From Prevotella sp. (GTDB lineage Bacteria > Bacteroidota > Bacteroidia > Bacteroidales > Bacteroidaceae), in contig JAFLSG010000001.1 in assembly GCA_022511065.1 (NCBI GenBank), positions 63,801-127,800 on the forward strand: a DNA stretch of 64,000 nucleotides, in the 5' to 3' direction. Position 1 is the stretch's first letter; every line of letters starts with the position of its first letter. The position numbers and the translations under genes were made by a program. Below the pieces are notes generated by a model. The model saw only the letters and a list, made by a program, of their open reading frames with translations. It was not told the origin of the DNA and made no database searches. Positions 6,866 through 23,984 of the stretch are shown here, piece after piece.

Positions 6866-7813
6866 TTAAGACAATTCCAACATTCGCTCAATCGGCTTCA
6901 CCGCCAGCCTTGCCATTTCAGCATCTATCGTAATCTCCGGCGCTCCGTTCTTCAAGCAATCATACATCTTCTGCAAGGTATTCAGTTTCATATACTGACA
7001 CTCATTGCAACTGCACTCCAATCCACTCTCCGAGATTTCAGGCGGCACGGGAATGAACTCTTTTTCAGGACAAGCACGACGCATCTCGTGCAAGATACCT
7101 GCTTCTGTTGCCACGATAAACTGTTTCCTGTCGCTTTCCTTCGCATAATCAAGCATCTTGGCGGTACTTCCCTTTACATCTGCCAACGCCAACACAGGGC
7201 TTTTACACTCCAAATGCGCCATGACCACTGCATCGGGATATTGCTCCTTCAACTGGAGGATATTCGTCACGGAAAAACGCTCATGCACGTGACAACCGCC
7301 ATTCCAAAGCAGCATCTGCCTATCCGTCACCTCATTGATATAATTGCCCAAATTATAGTCAGGCCCGAAGATAATCTTCGCATCTTCCGGCAATTGGTCA
7401 ATCACTTTCTTTGCGTTTCCACTCGTTACCACCACGTCCGTCAATGCCTTCACGGCAGCCGTCGTATTCACATAACTCACCACTAAGTGGTCAGGATGCT
7501 CCTCCTTGAACGCCTTCAAATCCTCCGCCTTGCACGAATCAGCCAAAGAACAGCCTGCATTCATATCCGGACAAAGCACAATCTTGTCTGGAGAAAGCAA
7601 TTTACAGGTCTCCGCCATAAAATGCACGCCACACATTACCATCACCTTTGCATTCGTCTCCGCCGCCTTTCTTGCCAGCGCCAACGAGTCGCCCACGAAG
7701 TCAGCAATGTCCTGAATATCGCCCACCGTATAGTAGTGCGCAAGGATGATTGCATCCTTCTCCTTGCACATTCGGCGTATCTTCTGTTTCAGTTCTTCCT
7801 TTTTCAACGTCAT
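6866..7813 (-). CDS. nadA: quinolinate synthase
   Basis: 315 aa, NadA-type threefold repeat with conserved Cys ligands (CPDMNAGCS, GGCHVHERF, ECSCNEC). Confidence 0.95.
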   Translation of the reverse strand: MTLKKEELKQKIRRMCKEKDAIILAHYYTVGDIQDIADFVGDSLALARKAAETNAKVMVMCGVHFMAETCKLLSPDKIVLCPDMNAGCSLADSCKAEDLKAFKEEHPDHLVVSYVNTTAAVKALTDVVVTSGNAKKVIDQLPEDAKIIFGPDYNLGNYINEVTDRQMLLWNGGCHVHERFSVTNILQLKEQYPDAVVMAHLECKSPVLALADVKGSTAKMLDYAKESDRKQFIVATEAGILHEMRRACPEKEFIPVPPEISESGLECSCNECQYMKLNTLQKMYDCLKNGAPEITIDAEMARLAVKPIERMLELS

Positions 7814-7874
7814 ATTATTATTATCTTTTATTCTATTTCTTTTATTAAAAAATGAAATGAGTTGTATGATATGC

Positions 7875-8095
7875 TGTGGATATCTTGATAACTCTGTTTT
7901 TAACCCTTCTCAAAGCGGTTTATTATATTGTATATCAGATGAATATATCTTTTTCTCTTCCTTGTTGAAATCTGTGGAAAACTCCTTAATTCCGTGTGTA
8001 TAATCCTGTGGATATCCCACCCTATTCAGATGGTTGTTAGTAATCCGAAGTTTATTCCATCGTTTTCCACATACTTATCCACACCTTTTTCCACA
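7875..8095. other. cluster of six DnaA-box-like 9-mers (candidate oriC or DnaA regulatory region)
   Basis: Reverse orientation: TGTGGATAT 7875-7883, TGTGGAAAA 7973-7981, TGTGGATAT 8007-8015. Forward orientation: TTTTCCACA 8063-8071, TTATCCACA 8075-8083 (perfect), TTTTCCACA 8087-8095. The three forward sites are spaced exactly 12 bp apart. A tract of more than 80% AT lies at 7814-7860. Confidence 0.45.
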
Positions 8096-8207
8096 ATCTT
8101 CTTAATATCTATCCGTCACGCCACGTTCATTCAACCCCTCCATATTTTGTACCTATGGGTGCTCCGTTGCAAAAATACGAAAAAGCATTGGTTGAATTCG
8201 ATGTACT

Positions 8208-8263
8208 AAAGTTAAAAAAGGTTACTATAGTATTTAGGACTCATAAACATAGTGTTTAGGAAG
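8208..8263. repeat. left inverted-repeat arm with two TAGTRTTTAGG iterons
   Basis: aaagttaaaaaaggttactatagtattta, then iterons tagtatttagg at 8228-8238 and tagtgtttagg at 8250-8260. Confidence 0.6.
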
Positions 8264-8376
8264 TATAAGCATTATGTCTGCAAAATAACTGTTAAACATT
8301 GAAATATTATCTCATAAAGATTTTGTATTTTCACTAATTCTATTTTATTTTGCGAGTAAAATTAAATATACCTATT

Positions 8377-10425
8377 ATGACAAATCGTTATTTCTATAAA
8401 GCAAATATTGCTTCATTTTTGTCAGAAGACACTAATTCTATTTTTGGGAAAATGTCGCGTGCTGACGAAATGGATACAGTTTCTATGCAGAAATTTGCTT
8501 GGGAGCAAGAAATAACTATAATGAAACAAGTCTTTGAATCTTATAAGAATGAGCAAGGATATATATTGTTTGAATACACAATTCCTCGTTTAAATAAGCG
8601 CATAGATGCAGTTGTATTGTTAAAAGAACGTGTTTTTGTAATAGAGTTTAAGGCAGGCGAAGAAGATTTTTTGCGTCATGACGTGGATCAAGTGCTGGAT
8701 TATGCTTTAGATCTTAAGAATTTCCATCAGGGTAGTGTAGATAGAATAATTATTCCTATTTTAGTAGCAACAGAAAGCGAAGCGTACTCTCCCGAACTTT
8801 CCTGTTATGATGATGGAATATACAAACCACTTTTGACAGGTGCAAATCATTTGGATGATATTTTCCGTTTTGTACTATCTCAATCATTGCATAAAACCGA
8901 GTATGTTGTCTCTATGGATGATTGGGCGAGAAGTCGTTATGCTCCAACACCTACTATTATAGAAGCAGCACGTACACTTTATCTTAATCATAGTGTGGCA
9001 GATATCACACGTCATGAAGCAGAAGGTGCACAATTAGAGCAAACAACACGCTATGTGCAAAAGGTTATTCGAGATACAAAAGCACAAGGTAATAAAAGTA
9101 TTTGTTTTGTTACAGGGGTGCCGGGAGCAGGCAAAACATTGGTAGGCTTAAATGTAGCTGTTCAACAAGAAGAATCCCAAGATTTGGCTGTTTATCTTTC
9201 TGGTAATGGTCCTTTAGTGCAGGTGCTAACAGAGGCTTTAACACGTGATAAAAAAGAACAGGAGAAAGCTCAAGGACATAAGATAACAAAAAAGGAAGCT
9301 GAGAGAGAGGTAAAACGTTTTATTCAAATTCTCCATCGCTACCGAGACAATATGCTCAATAAAGTGAAAGTAGTAGATGGTAAATTATGTATTGACCCAT
9401 CGAAAGAACTGAAAGACAAAGAAGCTGGATATGGTGAAGTAGAAAATATTGCTATTTTTGATGAGGCCCAGCGGTCATGGGATAAAGAGCATATTGCAAG
9501 TTGGTTAAGTCGTAAGAAAGGATTTGCTAATTTTCCTATGTCAGAAGGTGAGTTTCTTATATGGTCGCTCGATCAAAGGCCTGACTGGGCTGTGATTGTT
9601 TGTTTGGTGGGAGGCGGACAGGAAATCAACACTGGTGAGGCAGGAATAGGTGAGTGGATTCGCGCACTCAATGATACGTTTCCACATTGGAATGTTTATA
9701 TATCAAATCAATTGACTGCTAAAGAATATGCAGAAGGACACGTAAAAGAGTTATTGGTTAATAATTCACGAGTAACATATACTGACGATTTACATTTGGC
9801 TGTTTCTATGCGTAGTTTCCGTGCTGAAAATTTATCTAATATGGTACATTACTTACTTGATGGAGATACAGAAAATGTAAAGAATATATATAAAGAAATA
9901 GCAGATAAGTACCCTATTATTTTAACCCGCGATCTGAATAAGGCAAAACAATGGTTGCGTCAGCGAGCACGTGGGAATGAACGCTATGGCTTGTTGGCTT
10001 CTTCAAAAGCGGAACGACTTAAACCACTTGCAATAAATGTGCGTTGTAAAACAGATATCGTGCATTGGTTCTTGGACGATATAAATGATGTACGATCATC
10101 GCTTTTCTTAGAAGATGCTGCATCAGAATTTGATGTTCAAGGCTTGGAATTAGATTGGACATGTGTAATTTGGGATGGTGATTTACGATACACATCTGAT
10201 GGATGGTCTTTCTTTGAATTTAATGGAGGAAGTAAATGGAATAATATCAAGAAGGTAGATCGTCAAAACTATCTTATCAACGCTTATCGTGTGCTTCTCA
10301 CTCGCGCAAGACAAGGAATGATTATCTGTGTTCCTGAAGGTGTATTAGAAGATAACACTCGTCTTCCTAAGTTTTACGATGACACATATAATTATCTTAA
10401 AAGTTTAGGATTTGAAGTGATTTAA
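8377..10425 (+). CDS. DUF2075-type protein: N-terminal PD-(D/E)xK-like nuclease fold plus SF1-like ATPase
   Basis: EY..RIDAVVLLKERVFVIEFK (D-ExK motif), Walker A GVPGAGKT, Walker B IFDEAQR, GGGQEIN, and C-terminal YRVLLTRARQGM. The listed start 8350 is TTG, so the ATG at 8377 is preferred. Confidence 0.8.
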   Translation: MTNRYFYKANIASFLSEDTNSIFGKMSRADEMDTVSMQKFAWEQEITIMKQVFESYKNEQGYILFEYTIPRLNKRIDAVVLLKERVFVIEFKAGEEDFLRHDVDQVLDYALDLKNFHQGSVDRIIIPILVATESEAYSPELSCYDDGIYKPLLTGANHLDDIFRFVLSQSLHKTEYVVSMDDWARSRYAPTPTIIEAARTLYLNHSVADITRHEAEGAQLEQTTRYVQKVIRDTKAQGNKSICFVTGVPGAGKTLVGLNVAVQQEESQDLAVYLSGNGPLVQVLTEALTRDKKEQEKAQGHKITKKEAEREVKRFIQILHRYRDNMLNKVKVVDGKLCIDPSKELKDKEAGYGEVENIAIFDEAQRSWDKEHIASWLSRKKGFANFPMSEGEFLIWSLDQRPDWAVIVCLVGGGQEINTGEAGIGEWIRALNDTFPHWNVYISNQLTAKEYAEGHVKELLVNNSRVTYTDDLHLAVSMRSFRAENLSNMVHYLLDGDTENVKNIYKEIADKYPIILTRDLNKAKQWLRQRARGNERYGLLASSKAERLKPLAINVRCKTDIVHWFLDDINDVRSSLFLEDAASEFDVQGLELDWTCVIWDGDLRYTSDGWSFFEFNGGSKWNNIKKVDRQNYLINAYRVLLTRARQGMIICVPEGVLEDNTRLPKFYDDTYNYLKSLGFEVI

Positions 10426-10437
10426 TCTACTTTATAA

Positions 10438-10830
10438 ATGAAACATATTGAAGTAGTTGCAGCAATTATTTCAGACGATCAAGGGCGTGTTTTTGTCACG
10501 CAGCGAGGATATGGTGAATGGAAAGACTATTGGGAGTTTCCTGGCGGTAAGATAGAATCAGGAGAAACTCCAGAAGAAGCGCTGCAACGTGAGATTTGGG
10601 AAGAATTGGAGACACGTGTTGTTATTGAACGATTAATGCATACGGTAGAGTGGGATTATCCAGACTTTCATCTGACGATGCATTGTTATTGGTGTCACGT
10701 GGAGAGTGGTAATTTAACGCTAAAGGAACATGAAGATGCTTGTTGGTTGAAACAAGATGAATTAGAAAAAATGCAATGGCTTCCTGCTGATGTAGAAGTG
10801 GTGAAGATGATTAGTAATGATGTCCTATGA
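10438..10830 (+). CDS. NUDIX hydrolase (MutT/NudG-like (d)NTP pyrophosphohydrolase)
   Basis: Nudix box GGKIESGETPEEALQREIWEELE. 130 aa. 12 nt after the DUF2075 gene. Confidence 0.85.
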   Translation: MKHIEVVAAIISDDQGRVFVTQRGYGEWKDYWEFPGGKIESGETPEEALQREIWEELETRVVIERLMHTVEWDYPDFHLTMHCYWCHVESGNLTLKEHEDACWLKQDELEKMQWLPADVEVVKMISNDVL

Positions 10831-10891
10831 ATTTTGAAATACCCCACTGTTGCAAGTATATTGCTTCCACTTGCTAAGTATAGTCTTTGCG

Positions 10892-10953
10892 CTTCCTAAA
10901 CATAGTATTTACGGGTCGTAAACGTAAATACTATAGTAACGCTTTTTAACTTT
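10892..10953. repeat. right inverted-repeat arm with iterons and an internal 11-bp hairpin
   Basis: cctaaacatag 10895-10905. tagtatttacg 10903-10913 pairs with cgtaaatacta 10923-10933. The terminal 29 nt mirror the left arm. Confidence 0.6.
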
Positions 10954-11468
10954 TAAGCGTAATTCTTCATATACTGCCGAATAACCTTGCGGGCAGCACC
11001 GAGACGATGCTCCACGCTCTTGTAACCCTCATTGAGCTCGAGAGAAATCTCGCTGACCTTCATGCCACCATAGATGTGCATACGGTAAACCTCGCGGCAG
11101 TTTTCTGGAAGGCGTAAGAGACCACGCTCCATACGCTCTACAATCTCGCGGGCGGAGAAGATGGAGTCGGTGGATGCCATCTCAGGGCAACTGCCTTTGA
11201 TGTAATGTTCAAACTCCTCAAAGGTGGAGCGGCGGCGGTAATAGTCCGTAATCTGATTGCGGACGATGGTATAGACGAGACACGGCAGGGTGACGGGCGT
11301 AATCATCTTGTCTGACGTGAGCAGGCGGAGGAAAGTGTTTTGAACAATGTCTTCCGCCTCCGTAGTATTACCGAGACGGCTACTGGCAAATGCCAGCAGC
11401 TCGTCACGGTGGTTGGTATAGTAAGCCTCGATGAGGCTGAGACTCTTCGTATCCGTGGGTTTACTCAT
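10953..11468 (-). CDS. RNA polymerase ECF sigma factor
   Basis: Region 2 (AEDIVQNTFLRLL) and region 4 (SEISLELNEGYKSVEHRL). The ATG at 11468 overlaps the GH43 stop (ATGAGTAA). An alternative start lies at 11492. Confidence 0.85.
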   Translation of the reverse strand: MSKPTDTKSLSLIEAYYTNHRDELLAFASSRLGNTTEAEDIVQNTFLRLLTSDKMITPVTLPCLVYTIVRNQITDYYRRRSTFEEFEHYIKGSCPEMASTDSIFSAREIVERMERGLLRLPENCREVYRMHIYGGMKVSEISLELNEGYKSVEHRLGAARKVIRQYMKNYA

Positions 11469-12423
11469 TGATGACTTTCTGAATGGTTCCATCTTCGTTG
11501 TAGAACAGGCGCTGCACTTTCAGCGAGCGCAGCCATGTGGTGTCGTTGGACGGAACGCAATCGTGATAGAACAGATACCACTCGCCCTTATACTCCACGA
11601 TGCTGTGGTGCGTTGTCCACCCCACAACAGGATCAAGCAGCACGCCTTGGTAAGTGAAGGGTCCGTAGGGATTATCACCCGTTGCGTAGCAAAGGAAATG
11701 CGTGTCGCCGGTGGAATAAGAGAAATAGTATTTGCCGTCTTTCTTATGCATCCATGAAGCCTCGAAGAAGCGATGCGGATCATCAGCCTTCAGCGGCTCG
11801 CCGTCAGCCCCGAGAATCACCACAGGGCGAGGCATCTCTGCAAACTGAAGCACATCGTCGGTCATGCGTGCCACACGCGAGGGGAGAGGCAATTCTTTGC
11901 CCTCGGGCAGATATTCGGCTTTCAGCGCCTTGTTGTCCTTGTACCACTGAAGCTGCCCGCCCCAGATGCCACCGAAATAGACATAGATTTGACCGTCATC
12001 GTCCTTGAAGGCGCAGGGGTCAATGGAATAAGACTTGCGGATGGGGTCAGCCTGGGGAATAAAAGGACCTTCGGGACTATCTGCCACAGCCACGCCAAGA
12101 TGGAACACACCATTGTAATCCTTGGCAGAGAAGATGAGATAATACTTGCCATCCTTCTCAACGACATCATTGTCCCACATTTGCTTCTCAGCCCAGGGCA
12201 CATCCTCCACATCGAGAATCACACCGTGGTCGGTTACATCGCCATTCTCTACATCCGTGAGCGACAACACGTGATAGTCTTTCATCTGGAAGTGTCCGCC
12301 ATCGTCATCAAAAGCCTCGCCGCTGTCGCGGTCATGGCTCGGATAGATGTAGAGACGGCCGTTGAACACATTAGCAGAAGGGTCTGCCATATAATCACTT
12401 GGGAATAGATAACGTGGTTTCAT
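11461..12423 (-). CDS. glycoside hydrolase family 43 (beta-xylosidase/alpha-L-arabinofuranosidase type)
   Basis: MKPRYLFPSDYMADPSANVFNGRLYIYPSHD... is typical of a GH43 five-bladed propeller. The start is set at ATG 12423. The listed start 12618 would overlap the upstream transporter. Confidence 0.9.
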   Translation of the reverse strand: MKPRYLFPSDYMADPSANVFNGRLYIYPSHDRDSGEAFDDDGGHFQMKDYHVLSLTDVENGDVTDHGVILDVEDVPWAEKQMWDNDVVEKDGKYYLIFSAKDYNGVFHLGVAVADSPEGPFIPQADPIRKSYSIDPCAFKDDDGQIYVYFGGIWGGQLQWYKDNKALKAEYLPEGKELPLPSRVARMTDDVLQFAEMPRPVVILGADGEPLKADDPHRFFEASWMHKKDGKYYFSYSTGDTHFLCYATGDNPYGPFTYQGVLLDPVVGWTTHHSIVEYKGEWYLFYHDCVPSNDTTWLRSLKVQRLFYNEDGTIQKVINE

Positions 12424-12430
12424 ATCTGTT

Positions 12431-13900
12431 TTAGTTTTTATTGATTTCCTGATTAAATTCCTCCTCTTCCTCTGCATACCTGCGGCGCGAAGCAAGTTCA
12501 GCCTGCATCTGCTCGTTGAACTCCTTGGTGATAGGATAGAGACACAGGGCAAGCACGCCGATACCGAATAATACTGCCGACAGCAGGCTCGATACAAGGC
12601 GTATGCCCTCCATCGCACTTTCGTTCTGCACGCTTACGCCACCCGCCACATAGCCGAAGAAGGAGATGATGATGCCCGTGATGGCACCACCCATGCCGAG
12701 TCCAAGTTTCAGGGCAAGCACCACGCCAGAGAAGCAGAATCCTGTGGCACGACGATAGTTCTCGTATTCAATATGGTCTGCCACGTCGGCAATCATCGCC
12801 CACAACAGCGGAATGGTGGGTGCGTATGACAAGGAGCGGAAGAAGTTGAGCACAAAGAGCAGACTCACGTCGGTGGGCGACGGAATGTAGAACAAAGCGG
12901 TGAAGAACGCCGTCAGCGAGAGACAGACGATAAACACCTTTTTCTTACCATACTTGTTCGCGAGGTAGCGCGAGAGGAAGATAACCCCAAAGAACTGAAC
13001 CACGGCTCCCATCGTGTTGAACGCAGAGAATCCCACCGAATAAGCCTCATCGGGGTCGCTCACCATGCTGAACATCTTGAGGAAGTCATACAGCGCTTTC
13101 TGATCCACATTGTACTGGAAATAGAAGTTCATCGCCGACCCCCACATCGAGAGCGTTACGAACAGCACGAAGGTAAGCAATGCCATTGCGTTCCACGACA
13201 TATTGGATACCGTTCCCTTGATGTCCTCCATGATGTTTATCTCCTGGCGGGGTGGCGGCTGTATGCGCTCGCGCGTCACGAGGAAGGTGATGATGAAGAA
13301 CACGAAAGCCACCACTGCGAACAGCCCGATGGTGCATACCCATCCGTGCTGAGGCGTGCTGCCCTTGCCAAAGTGATCAACCAGCGGAAGCGTCATGCCC
13401 TGCACGACGAACTGGGCAATGGTCACAGCGATGAATCGGATGGTCGTGATGCTCGTGCGCTCCTTGATGCCGCTCGTCATCACGCCGCCGAGCGAGGTGT
13501 AGGGTATGTTGTTGAAAGAATATGCCGTCATCAGCAATATATAAGAAATGGTGGCGTAGGTTGCCACGGTAGCCTTGTCCTGTATGCCGGGATTATAGAA
13601 TGCGAGCACATAGAACAGGCAGAAAGGCACAGCCGTCCATATCATCCAAGGGCGGAACTTGCCCCAACGGGTGTTCGTGCGATCGGCAAGGATGCCCACC
13701 GTGGGATCCACCACGATGGCGGCAAGACTGGCAACCATCAGGATGCTTCCGGCTACGGCACCGTCAAGTCCGAACACATCCGTGTAGAACTTCAACTGGA
13801 AAATCATCATCATCTGGAATACCAGATTCGCGGCGGCGTCTCCCAAGGAGTAGCCTACCTTCTCACCTAATGAGACATGCTGTGACGTGACTTCTTTCAT
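12431..13900 (-). CDS. glycoside-pentoside-hexuronide (GPH):cation symporter, MFS
   Basis: 12-TM MelB/XynP-like sequence (GYSLGDAAANLVFQ...). Confidence 0.85.
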   Translation of the reverse strand: MKEVTSQHVSLGEKVGYSLGDAAANLVFQMMMIFQLKFYTDVFGLDGAVAGSILMVASLAAIVVDPTVGILADRTNTRWGKFRPWMIWTAVPFCLFYVLAFYNPGIQDKATVATYATISYILLMTAYSFNNIPYTSLGGVMTSGIKERTSITTIRFIAVTIAQFVVQGMTLPLVDHFGKGSTPQHGWVCTIGLFAVVAFVFFIITFLVTRERIQPPPRQEINIMEDIKGTVSNMSWNAMALLTFVLFVTLSMWGSAMNFYFQYNVDQKALYDFLKMFSMVSDPDEAYSVGFSAFNTMGAVVQFFGVIFLSRYLANKYGKKKVFIVCLSLTAFFTALFYIPSPTDVSLLFVLNFFRSLSYAPTIPLLWAMIADVADHIEYENYRRATGFCFSGVVLALKLGLGMGGAITGIIISFFGYVAGGVSVQNESAMEGIRLVSSLLSAVLFGIGVLALCLYPITKEFNEQMQAELASRRRYAEEEEEFNQEINKN

Positions 13901-13920
13901 CTTGATAAAGTTTTTCGCTA

Positions 13921-13928
13921 CAAAGGTA
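13921..13928 (-). promoter_or_regulatory. -7 box (TACCTTTG) for the symporter-GH43-sigma operon
   Basis: The reverse complement of caaaggta matches TAnnTTTG, 21 nt upstream of the ATG at 13900. Confidence 0.5.
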
Positions 13929-14034
13929 TTAAAAACGCGCTAAACGAGCATTGTAAAATGTTACAGATATTTTTTCAAATGTTTCATTTCCCCACAAAAA
14001 AGCATGAAGTGGCGGAGATACCGAATTATTTTTA

Positions 14035-14042
14035 TATATTTG
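14035..14042 (+). promoter_or_regulatory. -7 box (TATATTTG) for the esterase-symporter-GH51 operon
   Basis: TAnnTTTG 57 nt upstream of the ATG at 14099, divergent from the promoter at 13921. Confidence 0.45.
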
Positions 14043-14098
14043 CAAAGTTTTTGATACGCTGACTTATTTTTATTCAGACCTAAAAGAAAAATACAGGA

Positions 14099-16039
14099 AT
14101 GAGAAGACCACTGCTGACCTTGGCACTCACCCTTTCCATCGTCTGCCGTGCAGCCGTCACGCTGCCGCAGCTGTTCCAGTCGGGAATGGTGATGCAGCGA
14201 GGCAAACCCATCCCCGTCTGGGGCAAGGCAGATGCCGGTGAGAACGTAACCGTGAGTTTCAACGGAAAGACCTACCGCACCATCGCCGACGCGAATGGCT
14301 GCTGGCGCATAGACCTGCCGAAGATGAAGGCGGGAGGACCCTATGCGCTGAAAGTGAACGAGGTGGAATTGAAGGATGTGCTGATTGGCGACGTATGGCT
14401 CTGCTCGGGGCAGTCGAACATTGATGTGACGATAGAGCGTGTCTATCCGCAGTATGTAAGGGAGATAGATGCGTATGAGAATCCCGCCATCCGTATGTTC
14501 CGCGTGCAGAACGAGGCGAACACGCATGGCGTGAAGGATGATATATTGCCGACACCCATCAACTGGAAGTCCGTCACGAAGCAGAATGCTTGGTCTTTTT
14601 CTGCCGTCGGCTATTTTCTCGGTCGCCGTATGTTTGAAAAGACGGGTGTGCCGCAAGGTATCATCGTGAACAGCTGGGGAGGCACGCCCATCGAGGCTTG
14701 GATTTCCGCCGACTCGCTTCAGGCAGACTATCCCTTGCTTGTAGAGAAGACCCGCATCTATCAGAATGATGAGATGGTGAAGGCGCAGCAGCGGGCAAAC
14801 CAACTTGCCGACATTCAATGGCGCAACGTGCTTGATGCAAGTGACCCCGGCATCCGTGAGGATTGGACATCGGCAGATTACGATGACTCCGCATGGCAGA
14901 CGGTCAATCAATACGACACGGAGTGGGCAAAGAAAGACGGACGTGGTGTCATCGGAAGCATCTGGCTGAGGCAGCACGTTCAGATAGACAAAGAGCACGC
15001 TGGCAAGCCCGCCCGATTGCTGCTTGGCACGCTGTTCGACAGCGACTTCACGTATGTGAACGGCAAGGAGGTGGGGCGCACTTACTATCAGTATCCTCCC
15101 CGCCGCTACGATATTCCCGAAGGTCTGCTCAAAGAGGGTGACAACGTGATTACCATACGCTTCGTAAACAAGTATGGCATGGTGCATTTCATCAAGGAAA
15201 AGCCTTATATGTTAGTGTTCGGAGATGACCGTTTCAACCAAAACCCTCTTCCTGCTGATAAGATGCCACTTTATGAAAATTGGAAGCATCATTATGGCGC
15301 TAACATGCCATCTTGTCCAAGCGCGGATGTATCCTTGCAAAATCTGCCCACGACGCTCTACAATGCCGTGCTTTATCCCCTTGCCCCCTATGCCCTGTCG
15401 GGCGTTGTATGGTATCAGGGTGAATCGAACACGGGTAACCCCGCCCCATACGCTGATCTGCTGAAGAAGATGATGGGCAACTGGCGCGATCGCTGGGGGG
15501 ATGCTCAGATGCCATTCGTCATCGTGCAGTTGGCAAACTTCATGGAACCGAGTGAACAACCGCAGAATAGTGGTTGGGCAAGGCTCAGAGAGGCACAGCG
15601 CACAGTGGCAAAGGCAGATGAAAGGGCAGAACTTGCCGTTATCAACGACTTGGGCGAGACGGTGGATATCCATCCGCTTCGCAAGCGGGAAGTGGCTGAG
15701 CGTATCGGTCTGTGCTTCGATCGCCTGCTATATAATAATAAGGTGATGCTTTCGCCGGAGGTTGTATCGGGGGCCGTTGCCGATGGAAAGGTCGTGCTGA
15801 CGCTCGATCAACCCGTTCAGCCGGGTGCGATATATGAGTTTGAGATTGCAGGCGGCGATGGGCTTTTCCGCTCCGTGGAGGCTATTGCAGAAGGCAGTCG
15901 CATCACGCTGACACCCCAGTCCCTTACCAGTGCGCCCCTCACCGTGCGCTATGCCTGGAAGGATAACCCCATCAAGGCAAATGTCCGCTCGCTCAGCGGA
16001 TTGCCCATGTCATCATTTGAACTAATAATCAATCAATAA
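14099..16039 (+). CDS. sialate O-acetylesterase-like (SASA/SGNH) carbohydrate esterase
   Basis: Signal peptide. GDVWLCSGQSN and VVWYQGESN motifs. Confidence 0.85.
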   Translation: MRRPLLTLALTLSIVCRAAVTLPQLFQSGMVMQRGKPIPVWGKADAGENVTVSFNGKTYRTIADANGCWRIDLPKMKAGGPYALKVNEVELKDVLIGDVWLCSGQSNIDVTIERVYPQYVREIDAYENPAIRMFRVQNEANTHGVKDDILPTPINWKSVTKQNAWSFSAVGYFLGRRMFEKTGVPQGIIVNSWGGTPIEAWISADSLQADYPLLVEKTRIYQNDEMVKAQQRANQLADIQWRNVLDASDPGIREDWTSADYDDSAWQTVNQYDTEWAKKDGRGVIGSIWLRQHVQIDKEHAGKPARLLLGTLFDSDFTYVNGKEVGRTYYQYPPRRYDIPEGLLKEGDNVITIRFVNKYGMVHFIKEKPYMLVFGDDRFNQNPLPADKMPLYENWKHHYGANMPSCPSADVSLQNLPTTLYNAVLYPLAPYALSGVVWYQGESNTGNPAPYADLLKKMMGNWRDRWGDAQMPFVIVQLANFMEPSEQPQNSGWARLREAQRTVAKADERAELAVINDLGETVDIHPLRKREVAERIGLCFDRLLYNNKVMLSPEVVSGAVADGKVVLTLDQPVQPGAIYEFEIAGGDGLFRSVEAIAEGSRITLTPQSLTSAPLTVRYAWKDNPIKANVRSLSGLPMSSFELIINQ

Positions 16040-16044
16040 TCATT

Positions 16045-17451
16045 ATGACAACAGACACGACAAAAGGCTTTTATAAGCTTTCATGGCTCCAGCGCATCGG
16101 CTTTGGCTCGGGCGACCTGGCGCAGAATCTGATTTATCAGACCATCAGCATGTATTTGCTGTTCTTTTACACAAATGTTTATGGACTCGATCCTGCCGAT
16201 GCGGCGACTATGTTCTTGGTCGTGCGGCTTGTTGATGTCCTTTGGGATCCGCTTGTGGGCACCTATGTGGATAAGCACAACCCGAAACTTGGTAAGTATC
16301 GTGCTTATCTCGTGCTTGGTGGTATCCCGCTGACGGGTTTTGCCGTCCTTTGCTTCTGGAACGGTTTTGCGCCCTCGTTGGTTTATGCTTATGTCACATA
16401 CGTGGGCATGTCGATGCTTTACACGCTCATCAATGTGCCTTACGGCGCACTGAACTCATCGCTGACGCGCGACACTGATGAAATCACCACCCTCACCTCC
16501 GTGCGTATGTTCCTTGCCAATGTCGGCGGGTTATGCGTGGCTTCGGGTATTCCCCTCGTGGTGGCACTCTTTGCGCCGAAAGATGCGGCGGGCGAGGCGA
16601 TTATCAGCACACCAGAGGCAAGCAGTGCATGGTTCACCACGATGGCTATCTATTGCGTCGTCGGGCTGCTGCTGCTATTCTTCTGCTTCTCGCAGACAAA
16701 GGAGCGCGTAGTGATGGACAACAAGGATATGGCTGACGTGAAAGTGTCTGACCTTTGGACGGAGTTTGTTCGCAATCGCCCCTTGCGCGTGGTGGCTTTC
16801 TTCTTTATCACCGCTTTCGCCATGATGTCAGTCGGCAATGCTGCCGGTAGTTATTACATGACCTGCAACCTGCAGGCCACGAGCGATCAACTCGCCATCT
16901 TCATGGGTCTCGGTTCCGTGCCGGCATTCATCTTTATGCCCCTTGTGCCTGCCATTAAGAAGAAGGTGGGTAAGCGTGGCATGTTCAACATCTTCCTGAC
17001 CGTTGCCATCGTGGGTATGGCTATTCTCTACGTGGTGAGTGTCGTGCCGTCGCTCAAGTCGCAGATGTGGATTGTCTATGTCGCCCAGTTCATCAAGTCC
17101 ACGGGTGTCATCGTGGCAACGGGCTATATGTGGGCACTCATCCCTGAGGTCATCTCATACGGTGAATACACTACGGGCAGACGCATTTCCGGTATCGTGA
17201 ACGCCTTGACGGGCATCTTCTTCAAGGCAGGTATGGCACTCGGTGGTGTTGTTCCTGGCGCAGTGCTGGCATACGTGGGCTTCAATGCAGCCGCCACGCA
17301 GCAGACAACCTTCGCCGAACAAGGCATCTTGTGGCTTGTCTGCGTCATCCCCGCCCTGCTGTTGGGACTCGCTATGTTCATCATCTCGAAGTATGAACTG
17401 ACCGATGAGGTGATAGATGATATCAACAAGAAAATCGAGCAGCGCGGATAA
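16045..17451 (+). CDS. GPH family sugar:cation symporter, MFS
   Basis: 12-TM. GFGSGDLAQNLIYQ. Paralogous in type to 12431..13900. Confidence 0.85.
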   Translation: MTTDTTKGFYKLSWLQRIGFGSGDLAQNLIYQTISMYLLFFYTNVYGLDPADAATMFLVVRLVDVLWDPLVGTYVDKHNPKLGKYRAYLVLGGIPLTGFAVLCFWNGFAPSLVYAYVTYVGMSMLYTLINVPYGALNSSLTRDTDEITTLTSVRMFLANVGGLCVASGIPLVVALFAPKDAAGEAIISTPEASSAWFTTMAIYCVVGLLLLFFCFSQTKERVVMDNKDMADVKVSDLWTEFVRNRPLRVVAFFFITAFAMMSVGNAAGSYYMTCNLQATSDQLAIFMGLGSVPAFIFMPLVPAIKKKVGKRGMFNIFLTVAIVGMAILYVVSVVPSLKSQMWIVYVAQFIKSTGVIVATGYMWALIPEVISYGEYTTGRRISGIVNALTGIFFKAGMALGGVVPGAVLAYVGFNAAATQQTTFAEQGILWLVCVIPALLLGLAMFIISKYELTDEVIDDINKKIEQRG

Positions 17452-17484
17452 AACCGCCTGCTCACCAACCAAAACAATGATGAC

Positions 17485-19980
17485 ATGAGAAAGATTAGGA
17501 AAACCTTGGCGCTTGCCGTGGCTATGTTTGCCGTGGCAGGTGCCTATGCGCAGACGGGCAATGCCCGGGTGTTTATCTATTCCCCTAATGAGCGGGAAGG
17601 ATTGCATATTGCTCAGGAGACAGGTGGGGGCTGGCAGGAAATCGGTCAGCTCTGCGCAAGTGACTATGGCACGTGGGGTGCTGAAAAGAAGATGTACCAC
17701 CCCTCACTTGCCCGTGCAAAGGATGGTACGTGGCGATTAGTCTTCCAAATAAACAACGTGACGCCTGCTTTTGCGGCTGCCTATAGTCGTGACTTGGTGA
17801 CTTGGCGTCCGCAAGACTATCCCTTTGTATCGGCGAGTCCTTGTCAGAAGCCTGTGATTGTCGCCAATGAAGATGGTACGTTTGATATTCATTACAAGAC
17901 CTCCAATGGTAAGCGTGTGGTGTCTGCTTCCAATGATTTCCGCAAATTTGGTCGCGATAGTGAGAGCCGTTTGGATGAGAGTGCATGGGCTCGCGATACT
18001 GCTACCGTTGGTGGGAAGTTGCAAGAGGGTTGTCTTTTTGAGGTGACTCCAGAGGAATTGACTACCGTCACCTCCCATTTCACCAGAATGAAGGAAGACG
18101 CTCGTTTGAGTGCCGAGCGGATGCACGATGATGCTTCAAATCCTATCCTTCCCACCGCTCCGCTCACCGCCACGCTTACTATCACGGGCGAGGAAAAAGC
18201 AATCAGCGACAAGTTGATTGGTATTTTCTTCGAGGATATCAGTTACGCGGCTGACGGAGGGCTTTACGCAGAGTTGATTCAAAACCGCGACTTTGAATAT
18301 ACCGCCGCAGACCGCAAGGAATGGAATGCCACCACCGCCTGGCATTCGCCAAGTCCGATAAAGATTGCCACCGATAATCCGCTGAGTGTGAATAATCCGC
18401 ACTATGCACTGCTTACCGATACACCCATCACCAATGAGGGATGGGATGGCATTGCCGTCACGAAGGGAAAGAAATATGATTTTTCTATGTTTGTGCGCGG
18501 TTTGAAGAACTTTACTGTCCGCCTTGTAGGGCAGAGCGGTAACGTGATTGCCGAGACTTCCGTAAAGGCAAAGGGTAATGAGTGGAAACAATATACCGCC
18601 GTGCTTGAAGCAAAACAGACGGACGACAAGGCTCAGCTGACGGTTATCCCGCAGAAAGGCGGAGAAGTGGCTGTGGATATGATCTCCCTTTTCCCACAGG
18701 AAACGTTTATGAACCGCAAGAATGGACTTCGCAAGGACTTGGCACAAGTGATTGCTGACCTGCATCCCAAGTTCGTGCGTTTCCCAGGAGGCTGTATGAG
18801 CCACGGAAATGGTTTGGAAAACATCTACCATTGGCATCATACCGTGGGCGCATTGCAGGATCGCAAGCCTGACTTTAACATCTGGCACTATCACCAGACG
18901 CGTGGTTTGGGTTTCTTTGAATATTTCCAGTTCTGCGAGGATATTGGTGCAGAACCGCTGCCCGTATTGGCGGCAGGTGTGCCTTGCCAGAATTCCGCCA
19001 ATAATGCTGATGGCATCGGCGGGCAACAAGGTGGCATACCGATGGAAGAAATGCCTGCCTACATACAAGAATTGCTCAACCTGATAGAGTGGGCTAACGG
19101 AGACCCTGCCACATCGGAATGGGCAAAGATGCGCGCAGATGCAGGTCATCCCGCCCCATTCAACCTCAAGTATATTGGTATCGGCAACGAGGATATCATC
19201 GGAACGGTCTTTGAGGAGCGTTACGAAATGATATGCCGTGCCATCAGGGAGAAATATCCAGAAATCAAGATATGTGGCACGGTAGGTCCCTTCCATACCC
19301 CCTCTGCCGATTATCTTGAGGGTTGGGACTTCATCAAGAAGCACCCGGAACTGCAGGATATGACCGACGAGCACTATTATGAGTCCACGGGTTGGTTCAT
19401 GCACCACCGCGACTACTATGACAACTATGATCGTTCACTGCCAAAGGTGTATCTCGGAGAGTATGCAGCCTCCACAAAAGTGAAGCGCCCAAATGTGGAG
19501 ACGGCACTGGCTGAGGCTATCTATCTGACGGACATTGAGCGCAACGGCGATGTGGTGGAGATGACCAGTTATGCACCGATGCTTGCCAAGGACGGCCATC
19601 ACAACTGGGATCCCGACATGATTTATTTCTCCAATACGGAGGTAAGACCCACGCCTGCTTATGAAACGCAGCGATTGTTCTCCGTATATGGCGGCGACCG
19701 CTACGTTTCCTCACACATAGACATCGCTCCAGAATTGCGTCATCGTGTGGCATCGAGCCTTGTATATGACTCTAAGACGGGCAAGAGATACCTGAAACTC
19801 GTGAATGCCCTGCCTGTTGAACTGACGCTCAATGTGCATGGCATTGCTATCCCAGAGGGTGCTAACACGGAAGGTTTCAGTGGCAAACCCGAAGATCAGC
19901 AGGTGGAAATGAAGCATGGCAAGGCAGAAGGTAGCAAGGTTACGCTCGCCCCGTATGCCTTCCAGGTCATCACGCTCTGA
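17485..19980 (+). CDS. alpha-L-arabinofuranosidase, GH51 with N-terminal accessory domains
   Basis: Signal peptide. RFPGGCMSHGN, IGIGNEDI and LGEYA catalytic-region motifs. Confidence 0.85.
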   Translation: MRKIRKTLALAVAMFAVAGAYAQTGNARVFIYSPNEREGLHIAQETGGGWQEIGQLCASDYGTWGAEKKMYHPSLARAKDGTWRLVFQINNVTPAFAAAYSRDLVTWRPQDYPFVSASPCQKPVIVANEDGTFDIHYKTSNGKRVVSASNDFRKFGRDSESRLDESAWARDTATVGGKLQEGCLFEVTPEELTTVTSHFTRMKEDARLSAERMHDDASNPILPTAPLTATLTITGEEKAISDKLIGIFFEDISYAADGGLYAELIQNRDFEYTAADRKEWNATTAWHSPSPIKIATDNPLSVNNPHYALLTDTPITNEGWDGIAVTKGKKYDFSMFVRGLKNFTVRLVGQSGNVIAETSVKAKGNEWKQYTAVLEAKQTDDKAQLTVIPQKGGEVAVDMISLFPQETFMNRKNGLRKDLAQVIADLHPKFVRFPGGCMSHGNGLENIYHWHHTVGALQDRKPDFNIWHYHQTRGLGFFEYFQFCEDIGAEPLPVLAAGVPCQNSANNADGIGGQQGGIPMEEMPAYIQELLNLIEWANGDPATSEWAKMRADAGHPAPFNLKYIGIGNEDIIGTVFEERYEMICRAIREKYPEIKICGTVGPFHTPSADYLEGWDFIKKHPELQDMTDEHYYESTGWFMHHRDYYDNYDRSLPKVYLGEYAASTKVKRPNVETALAEAIYLTDIERNGDVVEMTSYAPMLAKDGHHNWDPDMIYFSNTEVRPTPAYETQRLFSVYGGDRYVSSHIDIAPELRHRVASSLVYDSKTGKRYLKLVNALPVELTLNVHGIAIPEGANTEGFSGKPEDQQVEMKHGKAEGSKVTLAPYAFQVITL

Positions 19981-20013
19981 TGCTTTCAGATACTCTCTGA
20001 TACTCTTATGCAT

Positions 20014-20056
20014 ACCCTATGCACGCGTATATATGTGTGCATAGGGTCATTTTTTT
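20014..20056 (+). terminator. rho-independent terminator after GH51
   Basis: accctatgcac (20014-20024) pairs with gtgcatagggt (20037-20047), followed by a T7 run. Confidence 0.65.
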
Positions 20057-20118
20057 GTACTGCGAGTGTCACAAATCCCCTTTTTCTCCGTATATAAGAT
20101 AAAGACGAAGAAAATAGA

Positions 20119-20799
20119 ATGACAGCAGAGGAATACATACGGCAGGCGACAGCAATCCGGCAGCGGGTGCTCGACACGACTCGGAAGTGTCTCGGCGACA
20201 CGGATGAGGCGGAAGACATCGCACAGGATGTGATGCTGAAGCTATGGCTGATGCGCGATGAACTGCGGCAACCCGTAGATGGTATCGCCGCCGTGATAAC
20301 ACGCAACCTCTGCATTGACCGACTTCGTAAGCAGCAGCCGACAACGGACATCACGCAGTTGGCGGAGGCGGAAGACCCAGGTGATGACGGAGAGCAGATA
20401 GAGCGCATGATGCAAGTCATTGATACGCTGCCATCCACACAGCGCACTATTCTCCGCATGCGCCATTTGGAAGGCATGGAGATGCGGGAAATTGCCTTGG
20501 TACTTGGTTCTACGGAAGTGGCTGTACGGAAGACGCTCAGCAGGGCGCGCATGGCAGTGCGCAGGAAACTGCTCGCCCTGTTGGCAGCCGCCTGTGTGGT
20601 AGGTGCAGTCATTATGGTAGGATTACGATGGGCAGTCGGCAGTGATACAGAAGACGAGTGCGTGGCGTACGTGTATGGCAGGAAATGCACGGATGAGGCT
20701 ATCGTGATGCAGGAGATGAGGCGCACGATGGGCGAAGTGGTTGAGGACAGTCCAGAAGCCACGGTGGAAAGTCAGTTAAATGAATTATTTGGAGATTGA
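20119..20799 (+). CDS. ECF sigma factor with C-terminal transmembrane helix and about 48-aa extracytoplasmic tail
   Basis: Region 2 (AEDIAQDVMLKLW), region 4 (REIALVLGSTEVAVRKTLSRAR), then LLALLAAACVVGAVIMVGL. Confidence 0.8.
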   Translation: MTAEEYIRQATAIRQRVLDTTRKCLGDTDEAEDIAQDVMLKLWLMRDELRQPVDGIAAVITRNLCIDRLRKQQPTTDITQLAEAEDPGDDGEQIERMMQVIDTLPSTQRTILRMRHLEGMEMREIALVLGSTEVAVRKTLSRARMAVRRKLLALLAAACVVGAVIMVGLRWAVGSDTEDECVAYVYGRKCTDEAIVMQEMRRTMGEVVEDSPEATVESQLNELFGD

Positions 20800-20802
20800 G
20801 AT

Positions 20803-21255
20803 ATGAGACGAAGATTGAAGTTATTGGCCATCCTTTTTGCGGCGGTATTGCTGTTGCCAATGGCGGTTCACGCCCAGAGCGGGCTGAACATCAATCCGCT
20901 CTTTGAGGGCAAGGTGGTGCGGCAGAAGCAGATGGTGGAGACACGGGTGAAGGGTAAGATGCTGAGCAAGTATCGGCTGACATACTTCCGAAGCGTGCGC
21001 TTCGAAGGCACTAAAAGGGAAATAGAGCGCGTTCATCAATTGGTGGAATTGGATCGCCGCACATCGGCTGCGCAGTCGGCAGAGAATTGGTTCGACCGGG
21101 AGAGTCACTCAAAGGAAACGCTCATGATGCAACTTTCCCCGAAGGACGGGCAAAATCGCTTCTTGAGTTATAGGCGCAACGGCAATATGGTGACCGTGGT
21201 CTATATGGAGGGCGCACTCGATTCGTTTGACGCATTGAAGGAAATACTGAAATAA
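20803..21255 (+). CDS. secreted hypothetical protein (sigma-operon partner)
   Basis: Signal peptide MRRRLKLLAILFAAVLLLPMAVHAQ. 4-nt gap after the sigma gene. Confidence 0.5.
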   Translation: MRRRLKLLAILFAAVLLLPMAVHAQSGLNINPLFEGKVVRQKQMVETRVKGKMLSKYRLTYFRSVRFEGTKREIERVHQLVELDRRTSAAQSAENWFDRESHSKETLMMQLSPKDGQNRFLSYRRNGNMVTVVYMEGALDSFDALKEILK

Positions 21256-21270
21256 AAGCATAGGAAGAAT

Positions 21271-22143
21271 ATGAAGAAACTATTGACACTGTGTTTGCTG
21301 ACGGCGGCGCTCGCGGCAAACGCGCAGGGAAACGACACGCTGACCATCCACGGTCCGCGCAAGGTGAGAATCATCACAGGTGACTCCATCCAGAAAGTAA
21401 AGGTGTATGGCAGTGAGAACGACAGCCAATATACCTATGAGACGAGCATCCAGTTGGTGGATTCCAACTATGTCAGTGAGACATTCATCAATAAGGACTG
21501 GGGCTTTACGCTTGGTAGTGGTCAGGGGCGGAATGGCTCTGGCCTGCGCGCGAGTCGATTTGTCAGTTCCCACTTCGGGGTAGGGCTTTGCACAGCCGTA
21601 GGGGCTGATAACCCTGTATCAGTGCTTGTCGGCAGTTCGTGGGAGCTGTTTTGGACAATAGCCGAGGCAAATCGTTTCTTCGCCGGCAGCCATCACGGAT
21701 TTTCTATGGGCTTCGGCATCGGATGGCGCAACTATCGCATGACGGATTTTAATCGTTTCGCTAAGGCGGATGATGGCATAATCTATACCGAACCTTATCC
21801 CGCTGGCAGCGAACCAAAATTCTCGCGCATCAAGGTGTTCAGCCTCAACGTGCCGCTGATGTGGAAGTACCGTTTTGCGCGTTCCGGCACATTCTCGCTC
21901 GGCGTAGTCCTTAACTTCAACACCTACGGTAGCATCAAGACCCGCTATGAGGATGCAGACGGAAAATCGCACAAGGATGTAGCGAAGCATATCCACCAAA
22001 AGCCCTTCACGCTTGACCTTATGGGCACTTTGAACATCTATGGCATCGGTGCCTATTGCAAGTATTCCCCAATGAGCACCCTCCAGTCCGCCTACAGCGA
22101 TAACAGCAATTTCCAATCTCTCTCCTTCGGGGTGTATCTGTAA
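21271..22143 (+). CDS. putative outer-membrane beta-barrel protein
   Basis: Signal peptide ending ANAQ, alternating beta-strand pattern, C-terminal ...LSFGVYL. Confidence 0.5.
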   Translation: MKKLLTLCLLTAALAANAQGNDTLTIHGPRKVRIITGDSIQKVKVYGSENDSQYTYETSIQLVDSNYVSETFINKDWGFTLGSGQGRNGSGLRASRFVSSHFGVGLCTAVGADNPVSVLVGSSWELFWTIAEANRFFAGSHHGFSMGFGIGWRNYRMTDFNRFAKADDGIIYTEPYPAGSEPKFSRIKVFSLNVPLMWKYRFARSGTFSLGVVLNFNTYGSIKTRYEDADGKSHKDVAKHIHQKPFTLDLMGTLNIYGIGAYCKYSPMSTLQSAYSDNSNFQSLSFGVYL

Positions 22144-22432
22144 GAAGCCGAGTTATCCTACTCCTTTCCTTTCGGGATATTGATTAAAAAATCCCTGCCA
22201 AAAGTTCCATTGATTGGATGCGTTGGCAGGGATTTAAATTGGGGAACTATATATCTAATTGGCAGACTTCAAGCGGTAATAATGAATATATTGGCAACCT
22301 GAAATAGATTTTTTCGCGTAACAAGACCTCCATAGGGTGTATTCGTTTTGTAACCACACCATATACAACCAGTATTTTCTATATATACAAATTGTATATA
22401 GGGTAGTTACAAACCGCATACAGGCTCCATTC

Positions 22433-22510
22433 GCATCGTTTGAAGCCTCCAAACGCATTGAATTCAGCCTTCAAACGACCCGAATTCAGCCTCCAAACTT
22501 TTGGCTTGGA
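22433..22510. repeat. REP-like GCCTCCAAAC/GTTTGGAGGC hairpin cluster, locus 1
   Basis: cgtttgaagcctccaaacgcattgaattcagccttcaaac (22437-22476) is 39/40 identical to 58492-58531. Confidence 0.7.
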
Positions 22511-22574
22511 AATGGAACGGTATTTGATACCGATTTTTTCAGCATAAAAAAGCGCATGAAACGGGAAAAATACG

Positions 22575-22582
22575 TACCTTTG
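22575..22582 (+). promoter_or_regulatory. -7 box (TACCTTTG) for the M48 peptidase gene
   Basis: TAnnTTTG 39 nt upstream of the ATG at 22621. Confidence 0.5.
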
Positions 22583-22620
22583 TTGCCGCAAACGAAATTC
22601 AACTTATAACTTTTAGCATT

Positions 22621-23415: not shown

Positions 23416-23437
23416 TCCAGCTGCTCACAAGTTTATT

Positions 23438-23980
23438 ATGCGGAAATTCTTTGCCATCCTATTTTTGGGAATCATTGCCTGCGTGAGCATCGACTACTGG
23501 TCGCCCCGTGACAAGTTTGCAGACTATGGGCAGACATTGCGGGAGCAGATTAACAGCGACCGGTTTTGTGCCTTTGAAGACCGGGATTGCGGTTTCGTGG
23601 TGCGCTATCCTTCTTTCTTTTCCAAGGAAGTGGAGGGCGAGGATGCAAGTTTTGGCCACCACCGCTTTGCCTATCACGATGCGCAAATTGACTCCGTGCT
23701 GGAAACCTCGGTGATTCCCAATCGCAGTCGTCTCTCTCCCAAGGAAATGATGGCGAAGGTGGCTGCGGAGAGATATGCCGCTTACACGGAACTAAGGCGT
23801 GACTCGTTCGTCATTGCCGGAACGCTTCACGAAAACGGAGGTTTTATTGACGGCTATGGCTATCGGGCAAAGTATGTGCTCCGCAACAATGCGTGGTATG
23901 TGCTTGCATTCTATTATCCCAAGGCTTACGAGCATTCCTTCGAGCGGCTGCTGAATGCAGTGGATGTGTGGGAAGGATAA
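23438..23980 (+). CDS. membrane-anchored hypothetical protein
   Basis: N-terminal TM helix (FFAILFLGIIACVSI). No recognised family. Confidence 0.45.
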   Translation: MRKFFAILFLGIIACVSIDYWSPRDKFADYGQTLREQINSDRFCAFEDRDCGFVVRYPSFFSKEVEGEDASFGHHRFAYHDAQIDSVLETSVIPNRSRLSPKEMMAKVAAERYAAYTELRRDSFVIAGTLHENGGFIDGYGYRAKYVLRNNAWYVLAFYYPKAYEHSFERLLNAVDVWEG

Positions 23981-23984
23981 GAAA

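Follow-up and report, generated by a model that had tools for sequence, protein, structure and literature searches.

Nhi-like nuclease-helicase and Nudix genes in a repeat-bounded cassette upstream of nadA in rumen Prevotella, a candidate anti-phage module

A low-GC cassette and its two genes

We analysed a 64,000-nt stretch (the window) of the metagenomic contig ENA ERZ27293306 (333 kb), in which the segment 8208-10953, here called the cassette, carries a gene for a large predicted nuclease-helicase and, directly behind it, a gene for a small Nudix protein, both enclosed by a pair of inverted repeats. With a guanine plus cytosine (GC) content of 36.4%, against 51.2% in the remainder of the window, the cassette is the lowest-GC stretch of the 64 kb. 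Both genes lie on the forward strand (8377-10425, 682 aa; 10438-10830, 130 aa) with a spacing of 12 nt, and neither a transposase or integrase nor a further open reading frame (ORF) of note was found among the ORFs inside the cassette. The low GC content, the gene spacing and the lack of mobility genes had been pointed out in the first-pass annotation, a model's note on the bare sequence, and all of them held. The cassette is flanked by nadA and by a sigma factor gene; NadA is 84% and the sigma factor 74% identical to proteins of Prevotella aff. ruminicola / P. ruminicola, and the host is therefore a rumen Prevotella. The coding features are:

8377..10425, + strand: Nhi-like / PDC-S41 gene, 682 aa (nuclease fold ~aa 1-175, linker, DUF2075 SF1-type ATPase aa 240-653)
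8572..8652, + strand: nuclease catalytic motif, with E66 (8572-8574), D77 (8605-8607) and E90-F-K92 (8644-8652)
9115..9138, + strand: Walker A motif GVPGAGKT, aa 247-254
9454..9474, + strand: Walker B motif IFDEAQR, aa 360-366
10438..10830, + strand: MutT/NudG-type Nudix NTP pyrophosphohydrolase, 130 aa, with the Nudix box at aa 37-59 (10546-10614)

The ATG at 8377 is the start of the large protein, as confirmed by the conservation of the N-terminus in its homologues. Pfam PF09848 (DUF2075 / SLFN-g3_helicase, 'Schlafen group 3 helicase domain') matched aa 240-653 at 6.2e-73, covering positions 1-353 of the 354 in the profile, and the PADLOC model PDC-S41 matched over the full length at 8e-268. 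E66, D77, E90 and K92 as well as both Walker motifs are invariant among 25 homologues, which upholds the PD-(D/E)xK motif (IDAVV..VIEFK) previously read from the translation; similarly, the earlier assignment of DUF2075 and NUDIX domains was reproduced by the hidden Markov model searches. An AlphaFold model of aa 1-235 (predicted local distance difference test, pLDDT, 77.9; predicted template modelling score, pTM, 0.75) led in Foldseek to PD-(D/E)xK nucleases as top-ranked matches (Cdn1, McrC, NucS, Can1/Can2, Card1, R.BspD6I and a Cas4-family protein), with a best E-value of 6.6e-4 and probabilities up to 0.99. A model of the whole protein was of low quality (pLDDT 58), and the Foldseek matches that it gave to SLFN14, Upf1 and RecD were not significant; sequence searches of the PDB with the large protein, as single sequence or as a profile of 25 sequences, gave nothing meaningful. 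The family is large: in a library clustered at 50% identity, with one representative per cluster, 934 representatives were found at E <= 1e-30, and most of the 150 matches listed are near full length.

A tblastn search of plasmids recovered full-length relatives on megaplasmids of the Bacillus cereus group (E = 1e-51), and BLASTP against the B. cereus protein WP_139849292 (611 aa, locus L122) aligned aa 6-676 with aa 12-602 at 2e-60 and 27% identity. WP_139849292 is near-identical to the gene 2729017301, named 'Nhi-like, verified', over those stretches of it that appear in the supplement of Millman et al. (2022). The window protein is alignable over 98% of its length with this Nhi-like system of B. 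cereus FSL H8-0482 (IMG gene 2729017301; Millman et al., 2022), and both consist of a PD-(D/E)xK nuclease, a linker and a DUF2075 ATPase. The catalytic motif, Walker A and B, GxGQEIxxGE and LTRxRxG are common to the two, as seen in the aligned motifs FEY..R.D..(L/V)L.....(V/I)IE(F/C)K, G.PGAGKT, I.IFDEAQR, G.GQEI..GE and AYRV.LTR.R.G, and the nuclease motif of the large protein aligns to EYE..D..ECK of the B. cereus protein. The window protein differs in being ~70 aa longer, due to an insertion in the ATPase domain (aa ~290-350), and in coming from Bacteroidota, whereas the verified one is from Bacillota. Nhi-like is organised in the manner of Nhi, with a nuclease at the N-terminus and DUF2075 behind it, and phages are reported to escape it through loss of a phage DNA methylase. 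Nhi itself (SERP2475 of Staphylococcus epidermidis), which gives nucleic-acid immunity (Bari et al., 2022), likewise combines in one polypeptide a PD-(D/E)xK nuclease with a helicase of the SF1 type that overlaps DUF2075. The first-pass annotation had compared the large protein with Nhi, and this resemblance stood only in part: full-length homology to the verified Nhi-like protein was found, whereas similarity to Nhi is undetectable beyond the P-loop, with the PADLOC Nhi model matching only aa 228-277 at 2.4e-5. From its motifs and its full-length alignment, the large protein belongs to the Nhi-like family, in which it is a distant relative.

The 130-aa protein was matched by NUDIX PF00293 at 4e-22 and by the NCBIfam mutT equivalog model TIGR00586 with 100.9 bits against a cut-off of 97.9; it also resembles the model of NudG, a pyrimidine (d)NTP (ribo- or deoxyribonucleoside triphosphate) diphosphatase, and PADLOC PDC-S07 covers its full length at 6e-50. 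The best solved relative is PDB 3gwy, a putative CTP pyrophosphohydrolase (7.6e-26), with MutT of Escherichia coli (1mut) at 3.8e-15. Compared with the Nudix consensus GX5EX7REUXEEXGU, R51, E52, E55 and E56 are kept and the last G is replaced by E. The protein is therefore a predicted MutT/NudG-type (d)NTP pyrophosphohydrolase with intact catalytic residues. A Nudix regulator of nadA of the NrtR type was ruled out, as the 130-aa protein is of the catalytic MutT type without a DNA-binding domain.

Recurrence of the gene pair and its surroundings

Homologues of the large protein (45-84% identity) were collected in 82 evaluable loci, mostly from rumen and gut metagenomes; a peptide-pattern scan of genome contigs gave just 6 loci. 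A Nudix homologue lies directly downstream on the same strand in 17 of the 82, the gap ranging from -8 to +51 nt and being -4 or -1 in several cases; in another 7 loci it is found within 5 kb. The beginning of a Nudix gene is additionally seen on two short contigs, L027 (84% identical) and L080. When all genes within three genes of a large-protein homologue were clustered, Nudix was ~4x as frequent as any other neighbour cluster:

Nudix: 23 loci
SF1 helicase-DUF559: 6 loci
UvrD-like helicase: 5 loci
HNH: 5 loci
Vsr: 5 loci
RecQ-like: 4 loci
RhuM: 4 loci

The Nudix box is intact in 16 of 16 full pairs. A MazG-like NTP pyrophosphatase (PF12643, 2.8e-22), an enzyme unrelated to Nudix but of equal chemistry, neighbours the large-protein homologue in 3 loci, including L093:4632-4964, and appears to stand in for the Nudix partner without being homologous to it. 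The pairing with Nudix, which the window alone had brought to attention, is a real and recurrent association, and our literature search returned no paper with both DUF2075 and Nudix. In three loci (L065:2807-3799, L072 and L117) the mechanically called Nudix ORF runs on into a C-terminal domain of ~200 aa, a putative fusion; this extension has a match to the CdiA_C toxin domain below the cut-off (25.8 against 26.6 bits).

Many homologues were found among known defence genes. Those of ~80% identity adjoin Kiwa (KwaA/KwaB) together with a Dam-type methylase (L020-22) or Hachiman (HamA plus helicase) together with a methylase (L028); those of L010-19 accompany RecQ-like and SF1-DUF559 helicase-nucleases and Fic; and the homologue in L027 adjoins an AAA ATPase and an S8 peptidase. 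Further neighbours are a Dcm methylase and Vsr. On the 81-kb Persicobacter plasmid CP012865 (L123:3995-8406), a 44%-identical homologue is preceded by Fic and directly followed by the IS21-type genes istA/istB, with no Nudix gene. Such defence contexts are shared with the verified Nhi-like system, and together with the homology to it and the full-length PADLOC matches they bear out the defence-like character previously assigned to the cassette. Separately, the island in L106 holds two Nhi-type paralogues, as a second nuclease-DUF2075 protein (L106:3935-5887, 650 aa; PF09848 5e-93; PADLOC Nhi 1e-13) lies ~0.4 kb downstream of its PDC-S41 homologue.

Repeat arms and strain arrangements

The cassette is bounded by two repeat arms, listed here with the flanking features:

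6866..7813, - strand: nadA, the conserved gene to the left of the variable spot
8170..8177, - strand: Bacteroidetes-type -7 promoter box of nadA, TATTTTTG, ~30 nt outside the left arm and retained in all strain variants
8208..8320, + strand: left repeat arm (LE), with the conserved core 8208-8236 and 11-mers at 8228 and 8250
10831..10953, - strand: right repeat arm (RE), with the outer core 10925-10953, 11-mers at 10903 and 10923 (reverse complement) and a hairpin at 10902-10934
10953..11468, - strand: ECF sigma factor, which in this strain type borders the cassette on the right and is the first gene of a segment (10954 to ~28837) that is inverted in other strains

The outer cores 8208-8236 and 10925-10953 are identical at 27 of 29 positions, as had been noted; even when up to 3 mismatches are allowed the window holds no third match, and none arose in 100 shuffles. 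The repeats turned out to be longer than these 29 bp, with arms of in fact ~115-125 nt: in a gapped alignment of eight strain copies they align over ~113 nt on the left (8208-8320) and 123 nt on the right (10831-10953), the outer 29 nt being 93% identical and the rest ~70%. Inward of the core, a second ungapped block (I2, 8233-8263 / 10892-10922) is 77% complementary, and the two arms have a 16-base identical core in common. From the five copies of the 11-mer TAGTRTTTASG described before, the four at 8228, 8250, 10903 and 10923 (reverse complement) are exact, against 0.05 expected, and spaced in a 22-nt phase (direct-repeat family D1); the fifth, at 10895 (reverse complement), does not fit the motif even if one mismatch is tolerated. 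In the right arm, a perfect 12-bp hairpin (10902-10934) is followed by a T-run, which is terminator-like on the + strand and lies between convergent genes. The arm ends with base 10953, which also serves as the third position of the stop codon of the sigma factor. Compared to L009 (1786-1807), L038 and L040, the left arm of the window is short of 22 bp at 8256-8257. The missing bases are one half of a hairpin, CATAGTGTTTA...TAAACACTATG, that is complete in the other strains and is the counterpart of the right-arm hairpin; the two hairpins show a compensatory difference of G:C to A:T. An Rfam scan of cassette and arms matched no family. The Logan assembly of SRR13619851 is interrupted within the right arm, where its contigs L002 and L024 share ~27 nt at 10925-10951, probably due to strain heterogeneity at the junction in that sample.

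Contigs of the same species with flanks of 96-99% identity were then compared at this site. Four contigs (L009, L040, L032 and L033) match the window, arms alike. In L029-L031 the sigma factor is 99% identical and homology stops at 10954, a single base away from the right-arm tip; a unique stretch of 122 nt comes next, and then the window from 28883 onward. L038 (39.7 kb), from the sample of L009, has the end of a glycosyltransferase gene (window 27743-28837) fused to window 8305-534 in reverse complement; it retains the left arm (8208-8305, with the complete hairpin) by nadA and is devoid of both genes and of the right arm. These two types present both junctions expected if 10954 to ~28837 were inverted and the genes absent. 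In L039, homology is lost ~17 nt outside the left arm, and a type II restriction-modification island (L039:1-7605) encoding a C5 DNA methyltransferase (PADLOC MTase_II 7e-81) and restriction endonuclease (REase)-like proteins (REase_II 2e-45) stands upstream of a nadA that is 96% identical at the nucleotide level. L041, finally, departs at ~8097. As strains thus carry at least four arrangements, the site upstream of nadA is a hotspot where different defence cargo can be lodged, and the cassette does not belong to the core genome: strains with near-identical flanks lack it or hold another island, in line with the earlier proposal. L039 and L041 have no arm, yet nadA and its promoter are intact in both, and therefore nadA does not need the arm. 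Within the strains that have the cassette, its genes are 96.2-98.5% identical, compared to 96-97% for flanking genes; as this divergence equals that of the flanks, the cassette predates the split of the strains and is an old resident, not a recent hop.

Some further observations concern the site and the window. The inverted segment of other strains, ~17.9 kb from the sigma factor to the glycosyltransferase-9 gene (10954-28837), has one breakpoint exactly at the right-arm tip and a second one that falls between 28837 and 28883. The junction DNA is private to each strain type and measures 45 nt in the window and 122 nt, with a promoter-like TAnnTTTG box, in L029-L031; inversion, replicative transposition and deletion were tried as single events from which the strain types could derive, and none fits, given this private DNA. 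In detail, the L039 island encodes the C5 methyltransferase, a 771-aa HATPase_c_3 protein, a 419-aa AAA_5/REase-like protein and three small ORFs without matches. A search for TAnnTTTG had the -7 box of nadA as its sole match, and a sigma-70 promoter and terminator scan was uninformative, as is the case for Bacteroidetes. The spacer upstream of nadA (7862-8100) holds several direct and inverted copies of TGTGGATA / TATCCACA and TGTGGAAAAC / GTTTTCCACA (families D12, I5, I6 and I9), which could be a putative regulator-binding array for nadA. Elsewhere, a repetitive extragenic palindromic (REP)-like intergenic repeat family based on AGCCTCCAAAC / GTTTGGAGGCT occurs at 22444-22498, 29546-29608 and 58492-58554 of the window and also in L029 and L031; a second family with the palindromic unit TAAGATGCCATCTTAT is present at 15257-15314, 24060-24119, 46017-46079, 51439-51507 and 59801-59870; and a cobalamin riboswitch lies at 58777-58960 on the + strand (Rfam RF00174, 83 bits).

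A probable anti-phage module and its alternatives

Mobile insertion cassettes, or transporter insertion sequences (IS), are IS-derived units without transposase that carry passenger genes between terminal inverted repeats. The cassette resembles them in its cargo between terminal inverted repeats, the absence of a transposase, the better-kept termini and the foreign base composition; it differs in having no target-site duplication, parent IS, second copy or evidence of transposition, and in its unusually long arms (>110 nt). Former transposon ends are suggested by termini that are better conserved than the arm interiors, by the phased subterminal repeats and by the right terminus, which is an exact breakpoint. 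Several results weigh against the arms as ends of a mobile unit. The cassette has no transposase or integrase, the flanks GATGTACT | ... | TAAGCGTA show no direct repeat that would be a target-site duplication, and only the right end is a base-precise boundary. No clean empty site was found among the contigs of the same species, in which the nadA-sigma interval instead shows the ~17.9-kb inversion, the lone left arm of L038 or the other island of L039. No further copy of the arms was detected by nhmmer in the window or in 1.1 Mb of fetched loci, the 26-nt degenerate core pattern had 0 exact matches in JGI metagenome contigs and IMG/VR, and blastn of a 135-nt arm against the plasmids of PLSDB gave none. 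Scored against its own shuffles, the window reached 24.5 for flanking repeats (shuffle maximum 13), whereas flanking inverted repeats were present in 0 of 74 other homologue loci (scores <=13.5), so that relatives outside the species carry the genes without them, a result that the first-pass annotation had itself named as refuting its reading. The solitary arm in L038, the equal divergence of cassette and flanks and the missing 22 bp in the window, a loss that suggests decay, point the same way. The mobile repeat-bounded module proposed in the first-pass annotation has the exact right breakpoint and the better-kept outer 29 bp in its favour, and the lack of a duplication, an empty site and a second copy against it. 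The reading as a mobile iteron-bearing cassette is weakly supported, movement as a unit is unproven, and the arms are about as likely to be relics of transposon ends as to be local DNA of a hairpin or terminator-like kind. Hairpin ends of the IS200/IS605 type were ruled out, as the two ends are inverted and not direct, and so was RNA-level pairing of the arms as 5' and 3' ends, as a promoter likely lies inside the inner edge of the left arm.

In our view the segment is probably an anti-phage module of two genes that arrived by horizontal transfer and sits upstream of nadA, in a defence hotspot that varies between strains, with the arms as a relic. By analogy with Nhi and Nhi-like, the large protein would act on phage DNA, which it would recognise and break down at the expense of ATP, perhaps with a preference for modified DNA as suggested for Nhi-like. 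The Nudix enzyme, as a modular accessory of the nuclease-helicase, would hydrolyse (d)NTPs to (d)NMP and pyrophosphate and might clear nucleotides that are specific to the phage or non-canonical, or deplete the dNTPs, with the effect that replication of the phage would be starved while its DNA is cut; this would reinforce restriction or limit collateral damage. The arms may be the ends of a non-autonomous transposable cassette, or a recombination site, that delivered the genes and are now fixed and decaying in this lineage. PDC entries are candidates from 'guilt-by-embedding' within BREX, DISARM and type I restriction-modification systems (Payne et al., 2024), and no entry for PDC-S41 or PDC-S07 was found in the supplement of that preprint. 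This candidate status, the identity of just 27% to the verified Nhi-like protein and the restriction of the Nhi profile match to the P-loop region speak against a defence function of the large protein. The pair as a unit is put in question by the 58 of 82 homologue loci without Nudix nearby, by the near-identical plasmid copy of B. cereus (L122) that has no Nudix neighbour, the verified B. cereus gene working alone, and by the divergence of the two proteins, which is uncorrelated (Mantel r = 0.05, p = 0.26); because of the latter, the two proteins do not behave as a co-evolving complex. In our reading, the Nudix enzyme is a frequent, swappable accessory and not an obligate co-evolving subunit.

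The main alternative, possible if rather doubtful, is that two independent single-gene defence candidates merely stand side by side and the Nudix protein is functionally unlinked. This would agree with the loci that have no Nudix gene, the missing co-divergence and the solitary action of the verified Nhi-like system, and also with PADLOC, which treats PDC-S41 and PDC-S07 as separate single-gene candidates; a stand-alone Nudix gene, the integron cassette brc167, has been reported to confer phage resistance. Such independence is difficult to reconcile with a Nudix gene that, where present, is nearly always at +1 and on the same strand, often with overlapping stop and start codons, that is far commoner than any other neighbour, and that is apparently exchanged for a MazG-like enzyme in 3 loci. 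For the arms, a tentative alternative is local structural or regulatory DNA (hairpin plus T-run) or a by-product of rearrangement, one copy being native DNA upstream of nadA; L038, with its left arm directly upstream of nadA and without the genes, fits, as do the lack of arms elsewhere in the collections searched and in other homologue loci, the hairpin with T-run between convergent genes, and the absence of target-site duplication and transposase. A recent duplication, however, predicts uniform divergence and not an outer 29 bp at 93% next to ~70% in the rest, synteny breaks exactly at the right-arm tip, and nadA with its promoter is intact in L039 and L041 despite the absence of an arm. Invertons bounded by inverted repeats are numerous in Bacteroidales, and the 16 identical bases in the cores of both arms could serve a site-specific invertase that flips the 2.7 kb and switches expression. 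We regard such phase variation as very improbable, as 6 of 6 arm-spanning contigs have the same orientation without hybrid arms, the region upstream of the genes lies inside the repeats, so that a flip would not uncouple the promoter, and no invertase gene is adjacent. There is even less to be said for a housekeeping repair pair of the core genome (MutT sanitiser plus repair helicase-nuclease), which we hardly credit: the Nudix protein does score above the MutT equivalog cut-off (100.9 against 97.9 bits), but other strains of the species lack both genes, the cassette is ~15 points under the genome in GC content, and homologues reside in defence islands and on plasmids.

Regarding known systems, the Nhi-like defence family has been described and the two-gene arrangement of Nhi-like and Nudix is new. 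The window gene is followed by Nudix, other than in the near-identical B. cereus plasmid copy. Both proteins have full-length counterparts in PDC-S41 and PDC-S07 (Payne et al., 2024), which are catalogued as two separate single-gene candidates, their operon adjacency being outside the catalogue. The brc167 protein is broadly comparable, as an anti-phage enzyme whose target is the nucleotide pool; the window Nudix protein differs as a minimal 130-aa MutT/NudG type beside a nuclease-helicase. A bolder proposal, to which we give little probability, is that the Nudix or MazG-like enzyme would form an integral part of a widespread subtype of Nhi-like, serving as its second effector or sensor and hydrolysing phage-specific modified dNTPs or a nucleotide signal and thereby coupling surveillance of the nucleotide pool to the nuclease-helicase, and that the arms would represent an undescribed transposase-less carrier of defence genes in Bacteroidota.

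The defence hotspot upstream of nadA in rumen Prevotella, with its >=4 (at least four) arrangements, is useful for mining the immunity of gut and rumen Bacteroidales. Nhi-like is a verified yet mechanistically thin family, in which the escape of phages by methylase loss hints at sensing of modified DNA. In a large, Bacteroidota-rich branch of this family a Nudix gene follows immediately in roughly a fifth to a quarter of cases, and a MazG-like gene is a neighbour in a few loci. The lead is therefore the Nudix/MazG partnership and not the repeats: hydrolysis of particular, possibly modified, dNTPs may belong to, or tune, Nhi-like immunity, which is a testable proposition.

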